From the NCBI RefSeq assembly GCF_003018235.1, contig NZ_CP027437.1: a stretch of 64,000 nucleotides of DNA. One strand, given 5' to 3'. Below are positions 9,119-40,818 of the stretch, one piece after another. This DNA comes from Escherichia coli. GTDB taxonomy: Bacteria; Pseudomonadota; Gammaproteobacteria; Enterobacterales; Enterobacteriaceae. Each line of letters opens with the position of its first letter. Position 1 is the first letter of the stretch. The position numbers and the translations under genes were made by a program. The notes below the pieces were generated by a model, which saw only the letters and a program-made list of their open reading frames with translations, made no database searches and was not told the origin of the DNA.

Positions 9119-9790
9119 ATGCAGTACCCGATTAACGAGATGTTCCAGACCCTGCAAGGTGAGGGTTACTTTACCGGCGTCCCCGCTATTTTTATTCGTT
9201 TACAGGGATGCCCGGTCGGCTGTGCCTGGTGCGACACCAAACACACATGGGAAAAGCTTGAGGATCGGGAAGTTTCCCTTTTCAGCATTCTGGGTAAAAC
9301 GAAAGAGAGTGATAAGTGGGGAGCAGCAAGCAGTGAAGACTTACTCGCAGTCATCGGTCGTCAGGGATACACCGCGCGTCACGTGGTGATTACGGGTGGT
9401 GAGCCTTGCATTCATGATTTGCTACCACTGACTGATCTGCTCGAAAAGAACGGTTTTAGCTGCCAGATCGAAACCAGTGGTACTCATGAGGTACGCTGCA
9501 CACCGAATACCTGGGTTACCGTATCACCAAAGCTGAACATGCGCGGCGGCTATGAAGTGTTGTCACAGGCACTGGAGCGAGCCAACGAAATCAAGCATCC
9601 AGTGGGACGCGTACGTGATATTGAAGCACTGGATGAACTTTTGGCGACGCTGACCGATGATAAACCGCGAGTCATTGCACTGCAGCCGATTAGCCAAAAG
9701 GATGATGCCACACGATTGTGCATTGAAACCTGCATTGCGCGTAATTGGCGTTTGTCGATGCAAACACATAAATATCTAAATATTGCCTGA
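9119..9790 (+). CDS. queE: 7-carboxy-7-deazaguanine synthase (radical SAM), queuosine biosynthesis
   Basis: 223-aa ORF with CPVGCAWCDTKH radical-SAM cysteine motif. Confidence 0.93.
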   Translation: MQYPINEMFQTLQGEGYFTGVPAIFIRLQGCPVGCAWCDTKHTWEKLEDREVSLFSILGKTKESDKWGAASSEDLLAVIGRQGYTARHVVITGGEPCIHDLLPLTDLLEKNGFSCQIETSGTHEVRCTPNTWVTVSPKLNMRGGYEVLSQALERANEIKHPVGRVRDIEALDELLATLTDDKPRVIALQPISQKDDATRLCIETCIARNWRLSMQTHKYLNIA

Positions 9791-9999
9791 TTAAACATTT
9801 ATAAGCGTTATAAATGGGTGGAACCTGTAAAGATTTCTACTCATTTATATTGTTTGTCGCCTCTGAAAACTCCTCCATTTTACCCATCCAGGGCTAATCA
9901 TTAGCATTCTCTACAAATTCTGCGGCATTAATTTTTCGCTGGAGTGAAAATTATTGCGGTAAAGTTTGGTAGATTTTAGTCGGTATAGGATTACTTTAA

Positions 10000-10128
10000 A
10001 TATTTAGCTTTTCAATCAATGAATTAAGTGCTCTTTAACATAATGGATGTGTTGTTTGTGTGATACTGTAAAGTTGGTAGATTGTGACTGGCTTAAAAAA
10101 TCATTAATTAATAATAGGTTATGTTTAG
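10000..10128 (+). promoter_or_regulatory. AT-rich CRISPR leader (approximate bounds)
   Basis: AT-rich non-coding stretch abutting the first, leader-proximal repeat; the degenerate repeat is at the opposite end of the array. Confidence 0.5.
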
Positions 10129-10400
10129 AGAGTTCCCCGCGCGAGCGGGGATAAACCGGCCGTCGCCGGATCAGCCTGGCTATGCCAGCAGAGTTCCCCG
10201 CGCCAGCGGGGATAAACCGGACGAACAAAATAAAAACCAACTGAATGATGCGAGTTCCCCGCGCCAGCGGGGATAAACCGCGAACCCTTGAACCGATAAG
10301 GGCGCTGTTTTGGAGTTCCCCGCGCCAGCGGGGATAAACCGGATAGGTGTTACACATATGACCTGGCACTGGCGAGTTTCCCGCGCCAGCGGGGATAACC
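10129..10400 (+). CRISPR. Type I-E-style CRISPR array, 5 repeats and 4 spacers
   Basis: 29-nt repeat gagttccccgcgccagcggggataaaccg at 10129 (variant cgcgag), 10190, 10251, 10312, plus degenerate terminal repeat at 10373-10400; four 32-nt spacers at 10158-10189, 10219-10250, 10280-10311, 10341-10372. Confidence 0.95.
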
Positions 10401-10447
10401 ATTCAGGTATGTTCAGGCCGGGCAGTTTCCCGCCCGGCCTTCCTCAC

Positions 10448-25507: not shown

Positions 25508-26242
25508 ATGTCCAAACTCGATCTAAACGCCCTGAACGAACTGCCGAAGGTAGATCGCATTCTGGCGCTGGCAGAAACTAACGCCGAACTGGAAAAACTG
25601 GATGCTGAAGGCCGCGTTGCCTGGGCGCTGGATAATCTGCCCGGTGAATATGTACTTTCTTCCAGTTTCGGCATTCAGGCGGCGGTGAGCCTGCATCTGG
25701 TGAATCAGATTCACCCGGATATCCCGGTGATCCTGACCGATACGGGTTATCTGTTCCCGGAAACCTACCGCTTTATTGACGAGTTAACGGACAAACTCAA
25801 GCTCAACCTGAAAGTGTACCGCGCTACCGAAAGCGCCGCCTGGCAGGAAGCGCGCTACGGCAAACTGTGGGAGCAGGGTGTTGAAGGCATTGAAAAGTAC
25901 AATGACATCAACAAAGTCGAACCGATGAACCGGGCGCTGAAAGAACTGAATGCGCAAACGTGGTTTGCTGGCCTGCGCCGCGAACAATCCGGCAGTCGCG
26001 CCAATTTACCGGTGCTGGCAATTCAGCGTGGCGTATTTAAAGTGCTGCCGATTATCGACTGGGATAACCGAACGATATATCAGTATCTGCAAAAACATGG
26101 CCTGAAATATCACCCATTATGGGACGAAGGATATTTATCGGTCGGTGATACCCATACAACCCGTAAATGGGAACCCGGCATGGCGGAAGAAGAAACGCGT
26201 TTCTTTGGCTTAAAAAGAGAATGTGGTTTACACGAAGGGTAA
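25508..26242 (+). CDS. cysH: Phosphoadenosine phosphosulfate (PAPS) reductase
   Basis: ORF 25355-26242; start set at [14 protein letters not shown] (244 aa); C-terminal ECGLH motif. Confidence 0.95.
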
Positions 26243-26260
26243 ATGTTATCCGGATAAATT

Positions 26261-26299
26261 AAACGCCTCTGTCAGAAATGATGGGGGCGTTTTTATTTT
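26261..26299 (+). terminator. Rho-independent terminator after cysH
   Basis: aaacgcc...ggcgttt stem followed by ttttatttt. Confidence 0.6.
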
Positions 26300-26409
26300 G
26301 CGAGCAGCATTCCTGATTTTAAACGTGAACGCCGCTGGAAGAATCAACAGGTATAGAATGGTGTCGGGTGCTTGAGGCTGTCTGGCGTTAAGCATTCGCG
26401 AGGTTCCAG

Positions 26410-26514
26410 ATGGACAAAAGCCCCAGGCGATATTTCTATCAACCTGAGGCCAGCGTTCGAACCCAAACAATTCGAATGTTAGTCTCTTCTTTGCAGGGAG
26501 GCAAGACATGCTGA
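26410..26514 (+). CDS. mok-like leader ORF overlapping the hok-like start (34 codons)
   Basis: ATG at 26410, stop TGA at 26512-26514 overlapping the downstream ATG (acATGcTGA); translation [34 protein letters not shown]. Confidence 0.4.
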
Positions 26515-26660
26515 CAAAATATGCCCTTGTGGCAATCATAGTGCTGTGTTTTACAGTACTGGGATTCACGCTGATGGTAGGCGACTCGTTGTGTGAGTTG
26601 AGTATCAGAGAACGTGGTATGGAGTTTAAGGCAGTTCTCGCTTACGAATCGAAGAAGTAG
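26508..26660 (+). CDS. Hok/Gef-family membrane toxin (type I toxin-antitoxin), 50 aa
   Basis: [50 protein letters not shown]: single TM helix plus conserved LCEL..R.G..E..A..AYES.K tail; below the ORF-track size cutoff. Confidence 0.8.
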
Positions 26661-26786
26661 CCACCACGCGGGGGTAAAACCCCGCGTACTGAATTGTTAA
26701 AGTTTGGCCTCCTGCACCCCTTTTTTATACTCTGTTTCTGGTGGCATTGATTTCCTGCAGGCAAGGGAGTAATCATTTCAAACCCA

Positions 26787-27824
26787 TCAAGACGCCTTCG
26801 CCAGCTCCTTCACCAGCGGTAGCATTATCCGCATAACATCACGGCAGCGACGTTCTATTCTTCCTGGAAGTGCCTTATCAATATGTTGTTGATTATCCAG
26901 TCTTACGTCATGCCAGCTATTTCCCGCAGGGAATGCAGCTGTTTTTGCGCGTTGCTGATAACCATCCTTATTCCCAAGATTCCAATTTGTTGCTTCTACC
27001 GAAAGTACGGCAATACCGGCTTTGTCGAAAACTTCGGCGTCATTACAACAGCCAGTACCCTTCGGATAATTTTTATTCAAACCCGGATTGGTCGTTGCGG
27101 CAATTCCATGACTACGCGCAATTGCCAGCGCCCTGTCGCGCGTTAATTTCCTTACTGCTTCAGGGGTTTTTACGCCGCTGTTGAAATACAATTTATCGCC
27201 AACAATTAAGTTATCGAGATTAATCACCAGCAGCGTATTTTTCTTTTCGGTGTCACTCATCCGCTTGAGTAAATTCTCAGCACCTAATTTCCCTTCCTCT
27301 TCACCACTGGTCGCCACAAATCGAATACCATACTCGGTAGGCGTATTTTTCAGGCGTTCTGCCAATTCCAGCATGACACCTAAACCTGCAGCGTTATCAT
27401 CCATTCCTTGTAACGTCAGTCCGCCGAGATTGGCATCGGCGTCAGCATCGCTCAGCGGGGCGTAAGTATCCAGATGCGCCATAATGATGATCTGCTGCGG
27501 CGCTTTGCCTTCATGAGCGGCAATCACCGTACTTCCCGTCACGTTATGCCAGCTCTTGCGATTATCGCGGGCGGTATAAATATACCGACTATTAAATGTC
27601 CGAATATCACTGCGATAACCCATTTGCTGAAACTGTTGGCGAATATAATCGGCAGATAACATTTCTGCTGGAGTTCCGGTCATGCGTCCCGGAAAGAAAG
27701 TAGCAATATGTCGTGCCTGAGTATTAGCAAAATCGCCAGGTTTAGATGACGAGGCGTGTACGGGGAGAATAAAGCATACGCCGAGCGCCAGGGCAGCGGT
27801 ACGGTGGCGCAATGCGGAAAACAT
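26787..27824 (-). CDS. iap: Alkaline phosphatase isozyme conversion aminopeptidase
   Basis: 345-aa ORF with signal peptide; M28 peptidase family; convergent with cysH. Confidence 0.9.
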   Translation of the reverse strand: MFSALRHRTAALALGVCFILPVHASSSKPGDFANTQARHIATFFPGRMTGTPAEMLSADYIRQQFQQMGYRSDIRTFNSRYIYTARDNRKSWHNVTGSTVIAAHEGKAPQQIIIMAHLDTYAPLSDADADANLGGLTLQGMDDNAAGLGVMLELAERLKNTPTEYGIRFVATSGEEEGKLGAENLLKRMSDTEKKNTLLVINLDNLIVGDKLYFNSGVKTPEAVRKLTRDRALAIARSHGIAATTNPGLNKNYPKGTGCCNDAEVFDKAGIAVLSVEATNWNLGNKDGYQQRAKTAAFPAGNSWHDVRLDNQQHIDKALPGRIERRCRDVMRIMLPLVKELAKAS

Positions 27825-37965: not shown

Positions 37966-38373
37966 CTATGTGTTCATCATCTTGCGCACTAGCTGCATAA
38001 ACAGCTCCTGCTCTTCTCCACTCAAACGCCCCAAAAATTCCTCATCCACGCTGTCACCTATCGGTATCGCCGCAGCAAGTATCTTTTCGCCTTCGGCAGT
38101 CAGCCAGACAAAGCGTCGCCGCTTGTCAGCGGCGTCATGTTCACGTCTGACTAAGCCACGATTTTCCATTCTTGCCAACATTTCTGCCAGCGTTGCTTTG
38201 GTGCTGACGGCTGCTTCCATCAGTGCCACCTGTTCGATACCAGGTTTATCAGCAATGGCGCGCATCACCGCGTACTGTGGTTTGGTCAGATCAGGTAACT
38301 CGTGCTGCCAGCGGGCCGTGTGTTGCTGAAAAAGCTGTCGTAACTGATGGAACGCTTTATTTCGTAACGCCAT
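37966..38373 (-). CDS. MarR/SlyA-family transcriptional regulator
   Basis: 135-aa ORF with winged-helix MarR-like region; divergent from the decarboxylase operon. Confidence 0.8.
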   Translation of the reverse strand: MALRNKAFHQLRQLFQQHTARWQHELPDLTKPQYAVMRAIADKPGIEQVALMEAAVSTKATLAEMLARMENRGLVRREHDAADKRRRFVWLTAEGEKILAAAIPIGDSVDEEFLGRLSGEEQELFMQLVRKMMNT

Positions 38374-38488
38374 GTAAACTCCGGGCTAATTCTCTGTCGC
38401 TATCATAGCGGTTTTTCAGTGACGAAGAAGATGTTGTTACTTTTCAATCCTTGCCGCTGTGGAAATGAAGGAGTATGTTAATAATAAC

Positions 38489-38502
38489 GTTCGTATACGA
38501 AC
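38489..38502. promoter_or_regulatory. Candidate operator: 14-bp perfect palindrome between the regulator and decarboxylase operon
   Basis: gttcgtatacgaac is its own reverse complement; 18 bp upstream of the UbiX-like start. Confidence 0.45.
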
Positions 38503-38519
38503 AATTAAGAGAGTAAGCA

Positions 38520-39113
38520 ATGAAACTGATCGTCGGGATGACAGGGGCTACCGGTGCGCCTCTTGGTGTGGCATTACTGCAAGCGCTGCGGGAGATGCCG
38601 AATGTCGAGACTCATCTGGTGATGTCGAAGTGGGCGAAAACCACTATTAAACTGGAAACGCCTTACAGCGCTCGCGATGTTGCCGCCCTCGCAGACTTCA
38701 GCCATAACCCGGCGGATCAGGCGGCGACTATCTCTTCCGGCTCCTTTCGTACCGACGGCATGATCGTTATTCCATGCAGTATGAAAACGCTCGCCGGTAT
38801 CCGCGCTGGTTACGCCGATGGCCTGGTGGGGCGCGCGGCGGACGTCGTGCTCAAAGAAGGCCGCAAACTGGTGCTGGTGCCGCGTGAAATGCCGCTTAGC
38901 ACAATCCATCTCGAAAATATGCTCGCACTTTCGCGCATGGGCGTGGCGATGGTGCCGCCGATGCCTGCCTTTTATAACCATCCCGAAACGGTAGATGACA
39001 TTGTCCACCACGTGGTAGCCCGCGTGCTGGATCAATTTGGCCTCGAACATCCTCACGCCAGGCGCTGGCAAGGATTGCCGCAGGCCCGGAATTTTTCTCA
39101 GGAGAATGAATAA
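38520..39113 (+). CDS. ecdB: UbiX-like flavin prenyltransferase (Pad1 / decarboxylase B subunit)
   Basis: 197-aa ORF MKLIVGMTGATGAPLGVALLQAL...; symbol from memory of O157-type annotation. Confidence 0.85.
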   Translation: MKLIVGMTGATGAPLGVALLQALREMPNVETHLVMSKWAKTTIKLETPYSARDVAALADFSHNPADQAATISSGSFRTDGMIVIPCSMKTLAGIRAGYADGLVGRAADVVLKEGRKLVLVPREMPLSTIHLENMLALSRMGVAMVPPMPAFYNHPETVDDIVHHVVARVLDQFGLEHPHARRWQGLPQARNFSQENE

Positions 39114-40540
39114 TGGCATTTGATGATTTACGCAGCTTTTTACAGGCGCTTGATGACCACGGCCAGTTACTGAAAATCAGCGAAGAGGTGAACGCGGAAC
39201 CGGATCTGGCAGCCGCAGCCAACGCCACCGGGCGTATCGGCGACGGCGCGCCCGCGCTTTGGTTTGATAATATTCGCGGCTTTATCGATGCCCGCGTGGC
39301 AATGAACACCATCGGTTCCTGGCAGAACCACGCGATTTCCCTCGGCCTGCCGCCAAACACCCCGGTTAAAAAACAGATTGATGAGTTTATCCGCCGCTGG
39401 GATAACTTCCCCATTACCCCGGAGCGCCGCGCTAATCCAGCCTGGGCGCAGAACACCGTCGATGGCGACGAGATCAACCTGTTCGATATTCTGCCGCTGT
39501 TTCGTTTAAACGACGGTGATGGCGGTTTCTATCTCGATAAAGCGTGCGTGGTTTCCCGCGATCCGCTCGACCCGGATAACTTCGGCAAGCAGAACGTCGG
39601 CATCTACCGCATGGAAGTGAAGGGCAAACGTAAGCTCGGCCTGCAACCGGTGCCGATGCACGATATCGCTCTGCATCTGCATAAAGCGGAAGAACGCGGT
39701 GAAGATCTGCCGATTGCCATCACCCTGGGTAACGATCCGATCATCACCCTGATGGGCGCCACGCCGCTGAAATACGATCAGTCTGAGTACGAAATGGCGG
39801 GCGCGCTGCGCGAAAGCCCGTACCCGATCGCCACCGCCCCGCTGACCGGTTTTGATGTGCCGTGGGGCTCGGAAGTGATCCTCGAAGGGGTTATCGAAAG
39901 TCGTAAACGTGAGATTGAAGGGCCGTTCGGTGAGTTTACCGGCCACTACTCCGGCGGGCGTAACATGACCGTGGTGCGTATCGATAAAGTCTCTTACCGT
40001 ACCAAACCGATTTTCGAATCGCTCTATCTTGGTATGCCGTGGACCGAAATCGACTACCTGATGGGGCCTGCCACCTGCGTGCCGCTGTATCAGCAACTGA
40101 AAGCCGAGTTCCCGGAAGTGCAGGCGGTAAACGCCATGTACACCCACGGCCTGTTGGCGATTATCTCCACCAAAAAACGCTACGGCGGCTTTGCCCGCGC
40201 GGTGGGCCTGCGTGCAATGACCACGCCGCACGGTCTGGGCTACGTGAAGATGGTGATTATGGTCGATGAAGACGTTGATCCGTTCAACCTGCCGCAGGTG
40301 ATGTGGGCGCTCTCCTCGAAAGTGAACCCGGCAGGCGACCTGGTGCAGTTGCCAAATATGTCCGTGCTGGAACTCGACCCTGGCTCAAGCCCGGCGGGGA
40401 TCACCGACAAGCTGATTATCGACGCCACCACGCCTGTCGCCCCGGACAACCGTGGTCACTACAGCCAGCCGGTGGTGGATTTACCGGAAACCAAAGCCTG
40501 GGCTGAAAAACTGACCGCTATGCTGGCCGCACGTAAATAA
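39113..40540 (+). CDS. ecdC: UbiD-family (prFMN-dependent) aromatic acid decarboxylase, C subunit
   Basis: 475-aa ORF, UbiD family; start overlaps the UbiX-like stop; symbol from memory. Confidence 0.85.
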   Translation: MAFDDLRSFLQALDDHGQLLKISEEVNAEPDLAAAANATGRIGDGAPALWFDNIRGFIDARVAMNTIGSWQNHAISLGLPPNTPVKKQIDEFIRRWDNFPITPERRANPAWAQNTVDGDEINLFDILPLFRLNDGDGGFYLDKACVVSRDPLDPDNFGKQNVGIYRMEVKGKRKLGLQPVPMHDIALHLHKAEERGEDLPIAITLGNDPIITLMGATPLKYDQSEYEMAGALRESPYPIATAPLTGFDVPWGSEVILEGVIESRKREIEGPFGEFTGHYSGGRNMTVVRIDKVSYRTKPIFESLYLGMPWTEIDYLMGPATCVPLYQQLKAEFPEVQAVNAMYTHGLLAIISTKKRYGGFARAVGLRAMTTPHGLGYVKMVIMVDEDVDPFNLPQVMWALSSKVNPAGDLVQLPNMSVLELDPGSSPAGITDKLIIDATTPVAPDNRGHYSQPVVDLPETKAWAEKLTAMLAARK

Positions 40541-40550
40541 GGAGAACAAG

Positions 40551-40787
40551 ATGATTTGTCCACGTTGTGCCGATGAACAGATTGAAGTGATGGCGAAATC
40601 GCCGGTAAAAGATGTCTGGACGGTCTACCAGTGCCAGCATTGCCTCTATACCTGGCGCGATACCGAACCGCTACGCCGCACCAGCCGCGAACATTATCCC
40701 GAAGCGTTCCGCATGACGCAGAAAGATATTGATGACGCGCCGATGGTGCCGAGCATCCCGCCGCTGCTGGCGGAAGGTAAGCGCTAA
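40551..40787 (+). CDS. ecdD: Decarboxylase small subunit D (Cys-rich, zinc-ribbon-like)
   Basis: 78-aa ORF MICPRCADEQ...CQHC; typical third gene of bsdBCD/kpdBCD-type operons; symbol from memory. Confidence 0.75.
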   Translation: MICPRCADEQIEVMAKSPVKDVWTVYQCQHCLYTWRDTEPLRRTSREHYPEAFRMTQKDIDDAPMVPSIPPLLAEGKR

Positions 40788-40790
40788 ATA

Positions 40791-40818
40791 AAAAGTCCGA
40801 TGCCCATCGGACCTTTTT
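40791..40818. terminator. Bidirectional terminator between the decarboxylase operon and convergent ygbN
   Basis: aaaa gtccgatg ccc atcggac ctttttatt: hairpin flanked by A- and T-runs. Confidence 0.7.

Follow-up and report, generated by a model that had tools for sequence, protein, structure and literature searches.

In type I-E CRISPR-Cas systems, Cas6e, Cascade and Cas3 are required for the maturation and use of crRNAs, and Cas1-Cas2 for growth of the array. In E. coli, arrays of the CRISPR2.2-3 form were reportedly also described by Diez-Villasenor in 2010 in strains without cas-E genes, and Almendros et al. are said to have found, in 2016, orphan CRISPR4 arrays (type I-F) that carry anti-cas spacers. 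The E. coli CRISPR-II locus consists either of two arrays, a leader-bearing CRISPR2.3 and a three-repeat CRISPR2.2 lying 0.5 kb apart, or occasionally of a single array, CRISPR2.2-3, and its leader (leader 2.3) is conserved in strains without cas-E (PMC3903273; PMC4489801). Almendros et al. attributed cas-less arrangements of the cysH-iap region that keep hok/sok to a deletion that removed the leader, the cas-E1 genes and the array CRISPR2.1 (PMC3903273). Repeats of type A go with the O157-type cas-E variant, for which the acquisition motif is CWT (AAG or ATG on the spacer strand), while the K-12 variant uses CTT only (Diez-Villasenor et al., PMC3737337).

The array described here lies in a 64-kb stretch of E. 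coli DNA, the whole of which is referred to as the window. Its closest relatives are the CRISPR2.2-3 arrays of strains 1190 and PCN033, which likewise have no cas-E genes. They share with it the position between queE and ygcE, the leader, the type-A repeat, the loop sequence GCGA in the first repeat (R1), the type of terminal repeat, the trailing sequence, the oldest spacer (31 of 32 nt) and the empty cysH-hok/sok-iap site. They differ in that the arrays of 1190 and PCN033 have GCGA throughout, whereas repeats R2-R4 of the window keep GCCA; in addition, the three leader-proximal spacers of the window are absent from this locus in 5,426 genomes, and the flanks are mosaic. CRISPR-II of K-12 is at the same locus, with the same repeat family and 61-nt period, is 99% identical over the leader-proximal 100 nt, and ends in a terminal repeat with the same 3' part as the last repeat of the window (R5), followed by identical trailing sequence. 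Unlike in the window, the leader-end repeats of K-12 are of type T (GTG...), and there are two arrays split by a 0.5-kb segment, other spacers, and a cas-E2 operon at cysH-iap that serves both CRISPR2.3 and CRISPR2.2. The orphan CRISPR4 arrays resemble the window in that an array is kept in a strain without matching cas genes (there are none in the 64 kb), but their repeat family and locus are different, and the four spacers of the window have no match to a cas gene.

The array is the E. coli CRISPR-II locus, located between queE (ygcF) and ygcE, in the single-array CRISPR2.2-3 form. Along its full length the window is colinear with the annotated chromosome of E. coli strain 1190 (98.2-98.9% identity), and the gene order is rlmD, relA, mazEFG, pyrG, eno, ygcG, queE, CRISPR, ygcE, yqcE, ygcW...queD, cysJIH, hok, iap, cysDNC...rpoS...mutS...hyc (to hycG). 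A 3-kb query around the array finds a match at the queE-CRISPR-ygcE site in 5,422 of 5,426 complete E. coli genomes. Over 25 kb, no complete genome is more than 99.1% identical to the window, which indicates that the DNA belongs to E. coli, and to a lineage that has no near relative among the complete genomes. We propose that the array is very probably the fossil immune memory of a strain that has no cas genes. The features on which this proposal is based are as follows.

9119-9790, + strand: queE (ygcF), the upstream flanking gene of CRISPR-II; an open reading frame, with annotation transferred from colinear E. coli genomes
9791-10129, + strand: leader 2.3, AT-rich intergenic sequence, with a conserved leader-proximal part formed by its final 100 nt (10030-10129)
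10130-10158, + strand: repeat R1, type A, with the loop variant GCGA (C14 to G)
10159-10190, + strand: spacer S1, the newest, 32 nt
10191-10219, + strand: repeat R2, consensus GAGTTCCCCGCGCCAGCGGGGATAAACCG
10220-10251, + strand: spacer S2, 32 nt
10252-10280, + strand: repeat R3, consensus GAGTTCCCCGCGCCAGCGGGGATAAACCG
10281-10312, + strand: spacer S3, 32 nt
10313-10341, + strand: repeat R4, consensus GAGTTCCCCGCGCCAGCGGGGATAAACCG
10342-10373, + strand: spacer S4, the oldest, the anchor at the trailer end, 32 nt
10374-10402, + strand: terminal repeat R5, GAGTTTCCCGCGCCAGCGGGGATAACCAT, from comparison with K-12, ATCC 8739, HCP5S3_I2 and 1190
10416-10439: GC-rich hairpin GGCCGGGC-AGTTTCCC-GCCCGGCC, between the array and the ygcE stop codon
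10448-11925, - strand: ygcE, the downstream flanking gene, frameshifted and present as two open reading frames
26243-26786: cysH-iap intergenic region, the usual site of the I-E cas operon and CRISPR2.1
26366-26523: sok RNA (Rfam, 111 bits)
26508-26660: hok, 50 codons

The array proper occupies 10130-10402, and consists of five repeats, spaced at 61 nt from start to start in all four intervals, and four 32-nt spacers. The original prediction of five repeats and four spacers is thus confirmed, the spacer sequences being exactly as quoted there. The range given with it, 10000-10447, does contain the array, but adds about 130 nt of leader at one end and 45 nt of trailing sequence, with the GC-rich hairpin, at the other. 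This hairpin is probably the terminator of ygcE, and is also found in the trailing sequence of K-12 and of the 1190-type and PCN033-type arrays. Three of the repeats are exact copies of the consensus (R2-R4), one has a single mismatch (R1), and one is a degenerate terminal repeat (R5). All are of type A (GAG...). In R1 the change of C14 to G turns the loop GCCA into GCGA, and the predicted hairpin is identical to that of the consensus repeat, with a 7-bp stem and a tetraloop (-15.1 kcal/mol); the hairpin predicted for R5 is weaker (-12.2 kcal/mol). In its repeat, spacer length, period and PAM, the array belongs to the type I-E CRISPR2 repeat family.

When up to 3 mismatches were allowed, a pattern search found four copies of the repeat in the array, against 0.00 expected from 100 shuffles, and no further copies elsewhere in the 64 kb. 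Neither Tandem Repeats Finder nor Rfam (at gathering thresholds) made a call at the array. For Tandem Repeats Finder this is expected, because the spacers are mutually unrelated, and the silence of either tool carries no weight for a repeat that is interrupted by spacers.

The two-array form of CRISPR-II, with a 503-nt AT-rich segment between the arrays, is found in K-12, ATCC 8739, HCP5S3_I2, TUM14771 and NY1601. This 0.5-kb segment is missing from the window, as it is from 1190, PCN033, MEI003, 06-00048 and SC418. R5 ends in ...GGGGATAACCAT and is followed by TCAGGTATGTTCAGGCCGGGC..., which is the end of CRISPR2.2 in the two-array strains, and both the 3' end of the terminal repeat and the trailing sequence are the same in K-12 and in the other strains whose array end was compared. 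R5 had been described as degenerate and taken as a sign that the array is not recently active. In fact it is the normal terminal repeat of the locus, and says nothing about decay, because this ending and the sequence that trails it are usual there.

The leader falls into two parts. Its last 100 nt have 98-100% identity to six of seven strains (K-12, 1190, TUM14771, MEI003, SC418 and NY1601), among which K-12 and NY1601 are cas-positive, and 94.9% to the seventh, HCP5S3. The distal part (9791-10029) has 88-91% identity to five of the seven, 95.8% to K-12 and 99.6% to NY1601. A promoter scan of the leader gave no + strand match above background.

Alignment to the annotated strain 1190, from rlmD to hycG, shows no cas genes in the 64-kb window. 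The gene cysH ends at 26242 and iap starts at 26787, and the 544-nt gap between them holds the sok RNA and hok only; the I-E operon cas3-cse1-cse2-cas7-cas5-cas6e-cas1-cas2, whose place is between these two genes, is not there. By comparison, in the cas-positive strain NY1601 it is cas3, casA, casB and so on that come after cysH. A search with up to 3 mismatches found no remnant repeats at cysH-iap, and none were seen when the sequence was read by eye. The contiguous cysH-hok-iap layout is present in 1,435 of the 5,426 complete E. coli genomes. The window therefore fits the published cas-less hok/sok arrangement, and the array is indeed an orphan relative to the window, as originally predicted.

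The four spacers have different histories, of which that of S2 is the clearest. It matches one IMG/VR viral contig and four NCBI draft assemblies at 32 of 32 positions, and in these five loci the protospacer is preceded by an ATG PAM. The protospacer comprises the first codons of a gene for a 241-aa protein (phrog_2600), located between kilR and xis/int in a lambdoid prophage that also has CI-like repressors, an O-like replication protein and a PAPS-reductase-like gene. Its integration site is icd, next to which the chromosome shows 98.2% identity to K-12 and up to 99.4% to other complete E. coli genomes. Homologues of the 241-aa protein in sequenced phages are only 27-35% identical. None of the 5,426 complete E. 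coli genomes has the kilR/241-aa module, while an index of the assembly collection lists the exact protein in 176 blocks. A different spacer, found in the CRISPR2.1 array of 231 complete genomes, matches the same phage at 32 of 32 positions, also with an ATG PAM, on the opposite strand and about 130 bp away (L007 5840-6035; also L004 and L008-L010). S2 thus marks an icd-integrating temperate phage as a past invader.

S1 shares a 28-nt core with a spacer found in 390 genomes, in a register shifted by 4 nt. The spacer in ATCC 8739 reads TAAG+GCCGTC...TATGCC, and S1 of the window reads GCCGTC...TATGCC+AGCA. The extra TAAG in ATCC 8739 implies that AAG lies directly upstream of the window's S1, which gives a deduced PAM. 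From their sequences, S1 and the ATCC 8739-type spacer are best read as two independent captures of the same source DNA, of which the window's copy would have the canonical PAM. Together, S1 and the 390-genome spacer (L003 1497-1528) rebuild a 36-nt protospacer, TAAGGCCGTCGCCGGATCAGCCTGGCTATGCCAGCA, for which there was no match in the databases searched.

S3 has a 31/32 match to a spacer in the CRISPR2.1 array of one E. coli strain from a goat. In 36 complete genomes, the single-array form of this locus ends with a spacer that matches S4 at 31 of 32 positions. The arrays sharing S4 are of at least two types, the 1190 type with three other spacers upstream and the PCN033 type with one. The empty cysH-hok-iap site is present in many of these 36 genomes, and those checked have no cas genes. 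A shared S4 anchor followed by differing spacers in three lineages indicates that the system was active after these lineages split, with recombination as the alternative. S1-S3 are not found in their present form at CRISPR-II in any of the 5,426 complete genomes. The comparison of spacer content with other strains that had been suggested yields one old spacer that is shared with 36 genomes and a set of spacers that is new relative to these genomes, and that can be used as a lineage marker.

In the suggested comparison of the spacers with phage and plasmid databases, BLAST of all four against 50,697 phage and 72,556 plasmid records returned matches at chance level and one mislabelled E. coli chromosome, and it was IMG/VR and the draft assemblies that revealed the target of S2. 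No protospacers for S1, S3 or S4 were found in phages, plasmids or IMG/VR, the IMG/VR scans for these three allowing any base at every sixth position, and none for the S1 core or S3 in the GTDB representative genomes. In a metagenome scan with S4, the sole match was to another copy of the 1190-type array.

The loop variant of R1 gives some information on the timing. Repeats with GCGA are found in 40 of the 5,426 genomes, namely the 36 that share S4, together with MEI003 (17 GCGA copies), 06-00048 (13 copies), SC418 and Res13. In Res13-Lact-PER13-34 (1807-2384), the leader end has six GCGA repeats and the next three have GCCA, as would be expected if each acquisition duplicated a first repeat that had mutated. 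Decay as an explanation of the R1 variant was ruled out, the variant being propagated in long arrays elsewhere, in up to 17 copies. The original prediction had taken the substitution to mean that the array was not recently active. The inactivity stands, but the substitution is not a defect: active arrays copy GCGA, and the predicted hairpin is unchanged. What matters is that GCGA is present in R1 only, which implies that no spacer has been gained after the change in R1, be it mutational or recombinational in origin. Conservation of the leader-proximal 100 nt is too high for a breakpoint to be located that would distinguish mutation here from import. It is worth adding that the anchor spacers differ among the arrays that have the variant, and that these arrays include one-array as well as two-array layouts (Res13 and MEI003 among them). 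Judging by this distribution, it would either have arisen more than once, or have spread by recombination together with the leader-R1 segment.

The AAG deduced for S1 and the ATG observed for S2 together correspond to CWT, and so fit the O157-type variant. We infer that the builder of the array was probably a Cas variant of this type, in keeping with loss of a cas-E1 operon.

The history that we propose is as follows. The array would have been built spacer by spacer by the Cas1-Cas2 of an O157-type (cas-E1/EO) variant, from DNA adjacent to AAG or ATG, with at least one spacer derived from an icd-integrating, temperate lambdoid phage. Deletion at cysH-iap would have removed the type I-E cas operon together with CRISPR2.1, leaving hok/sok. 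Without Cas6e, Cascade and Cas3, a leader-driven transcript would be neither cut to crRNAs nor used for interference, and without Cas1-Cas2 no new spacers would be added. By this analysis the array is almost certainly inert, and would at present be neither expressed nor processed. With its leader and repeats intact, it could probably function once more if cas-E genes were provided, or were regained by recombination. The intactness of the repeats and of the leader-proximal 100 nt could mean that the loss of cas was recent, or that there is some constraint.

Other explanations were also weighed. The leader-proximal 100 nt are intact, and so are all but one of the five repeats, as they would be in a working secondary array that is served in trans by I-E cas genes outside the window, on a plasmid or at another chromosomal site; and in cas-positive E. 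coli CRISPR-II is indeed served in trans by the cysH-iap operon (PMC3903273), which in K-12 is 24 kb away. However, cysH-iap is the only known I-E cas site in E. coli, and it is within the window and empty, as it is in the sampled genomes that share S4. The R1 variant has also not been propagated, meaning that there has been no adaptation since it arose. A working array is therefore very unlikely. Type I-F systems, at clpA-infA, have other repeats and another Cas6. Good preservation would equally be expected if the array were retained for a function independent of Cas, either through anti-cas spacers, for which the orphan I-F arrays of E. coli are a precedent, or as a regulatory RNA pairing with host transcripts. 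Special roles of both kinds had been suggested for these spacers, and the searches lend them no support. S2-S4 have no identical stretch of 21 nt or more outside CRISPR arrays in the 5,426 complete E. coli genomes, every cas variant included; strong matches to S1 are confined to CRISPR arrays (in the 390 genomes), the few that remain being weak; and the matches listed for the spacers against the complete genomes were all to CRISPR arrays, with no strong match to a cas gene or to any other chromosomal sequence. Within the window, the best off-target has 9 mismatches, and the target of S2 is plainly a phage gene. We consider that such a function has only a slight chance of being correct, smaller still than that of a working array.

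Alternatively, the array might be a re-armable memory, with leader and repeats kept intact in cas-less lineages because cas-E modules are repeatedly lost and regained at cysH-iap by recombination. We regard this as improbable. If it were true, stored spacers such as S2 would become protective again each time that a module returned, and the independent capture by unrelated strains of protospacers that overlap or are neighbours (S1 and that of the 390 genomes; S2 and that of the 231 genomes, about 130 bp away) would identify phage regions that E. coli repeatedly samples. Finally, the array is short, and is without the 0.5-kb segment of most strains, as might result from a chance repeat or from a misassembly collapsing a longer array. 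No copies are expected by chance, and a metagenome contig as well as numerous independent complete genomes have this compact layout with the same trailing sequence, so that an artefact can practically be dismissed. The fossil memory of a cas-less strain thus provides the preferred explanation. Earlier work on E. coli has already documented the locus, the form with a single array, the cysH-hok/sok-iap arrangement without cas, and the fact that CRISPR-II persists in strains of this kind. The array is therefore ordinary for the species, and its importance beyond strain typing is slight.

The sequences flanking the array are mosaic. Compared to strain 1190, identity is 93.6% for queE, 87.9% for the distal intergenic region and 96.8% for ygcE; compared to NY1601 it is 99.6% for the distal intergenic region and 99.4% for ygcE. 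More generally, queE of the window has 92.0-98.2% identity to seven strains, and ygcE 99.3-99.4% identity to TUM14771, HCP5S3 and NY1601. By these values queE and the distal leader (9119-10029) are unusually polymorphic and mosaic among E. coli strains, which suggests recombination breakpoints around the array. Given this mosaicism with respect to the strains with which S4 is shared, recombination rather than acquisition in situ may account for part of the spacer history.

Some minor observations can be added. Part of S3 (10285-10312) was flagged by a terminator scan as a short hairpin followed by a T-run on the + strand. It might end transcripts early within the array, but is probably a chance occurrence. 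Within queE, 22 nt at 9659-9680 (GATAAACCGCGAGTCATTGCAC) have 82% identity to the junction of R3 and S3, with 12 consecutive matching bases, and this likeness is also probably due to chance. The sugar kinase gene ygcE is 1478 nt long as against 1479 nt, with a switch of frame near codon 355, and represents either a pseudogene or a sequencing error. Further along the window, in the rpoS-mutS interval (37966-40800, between rpoS and ygbN), there is a gene for a MarR-family regulator together with genes for subunits B, C and D of a non-oxidative hydroxyarylic acid decarboxylase, as annotated in strain 1190.
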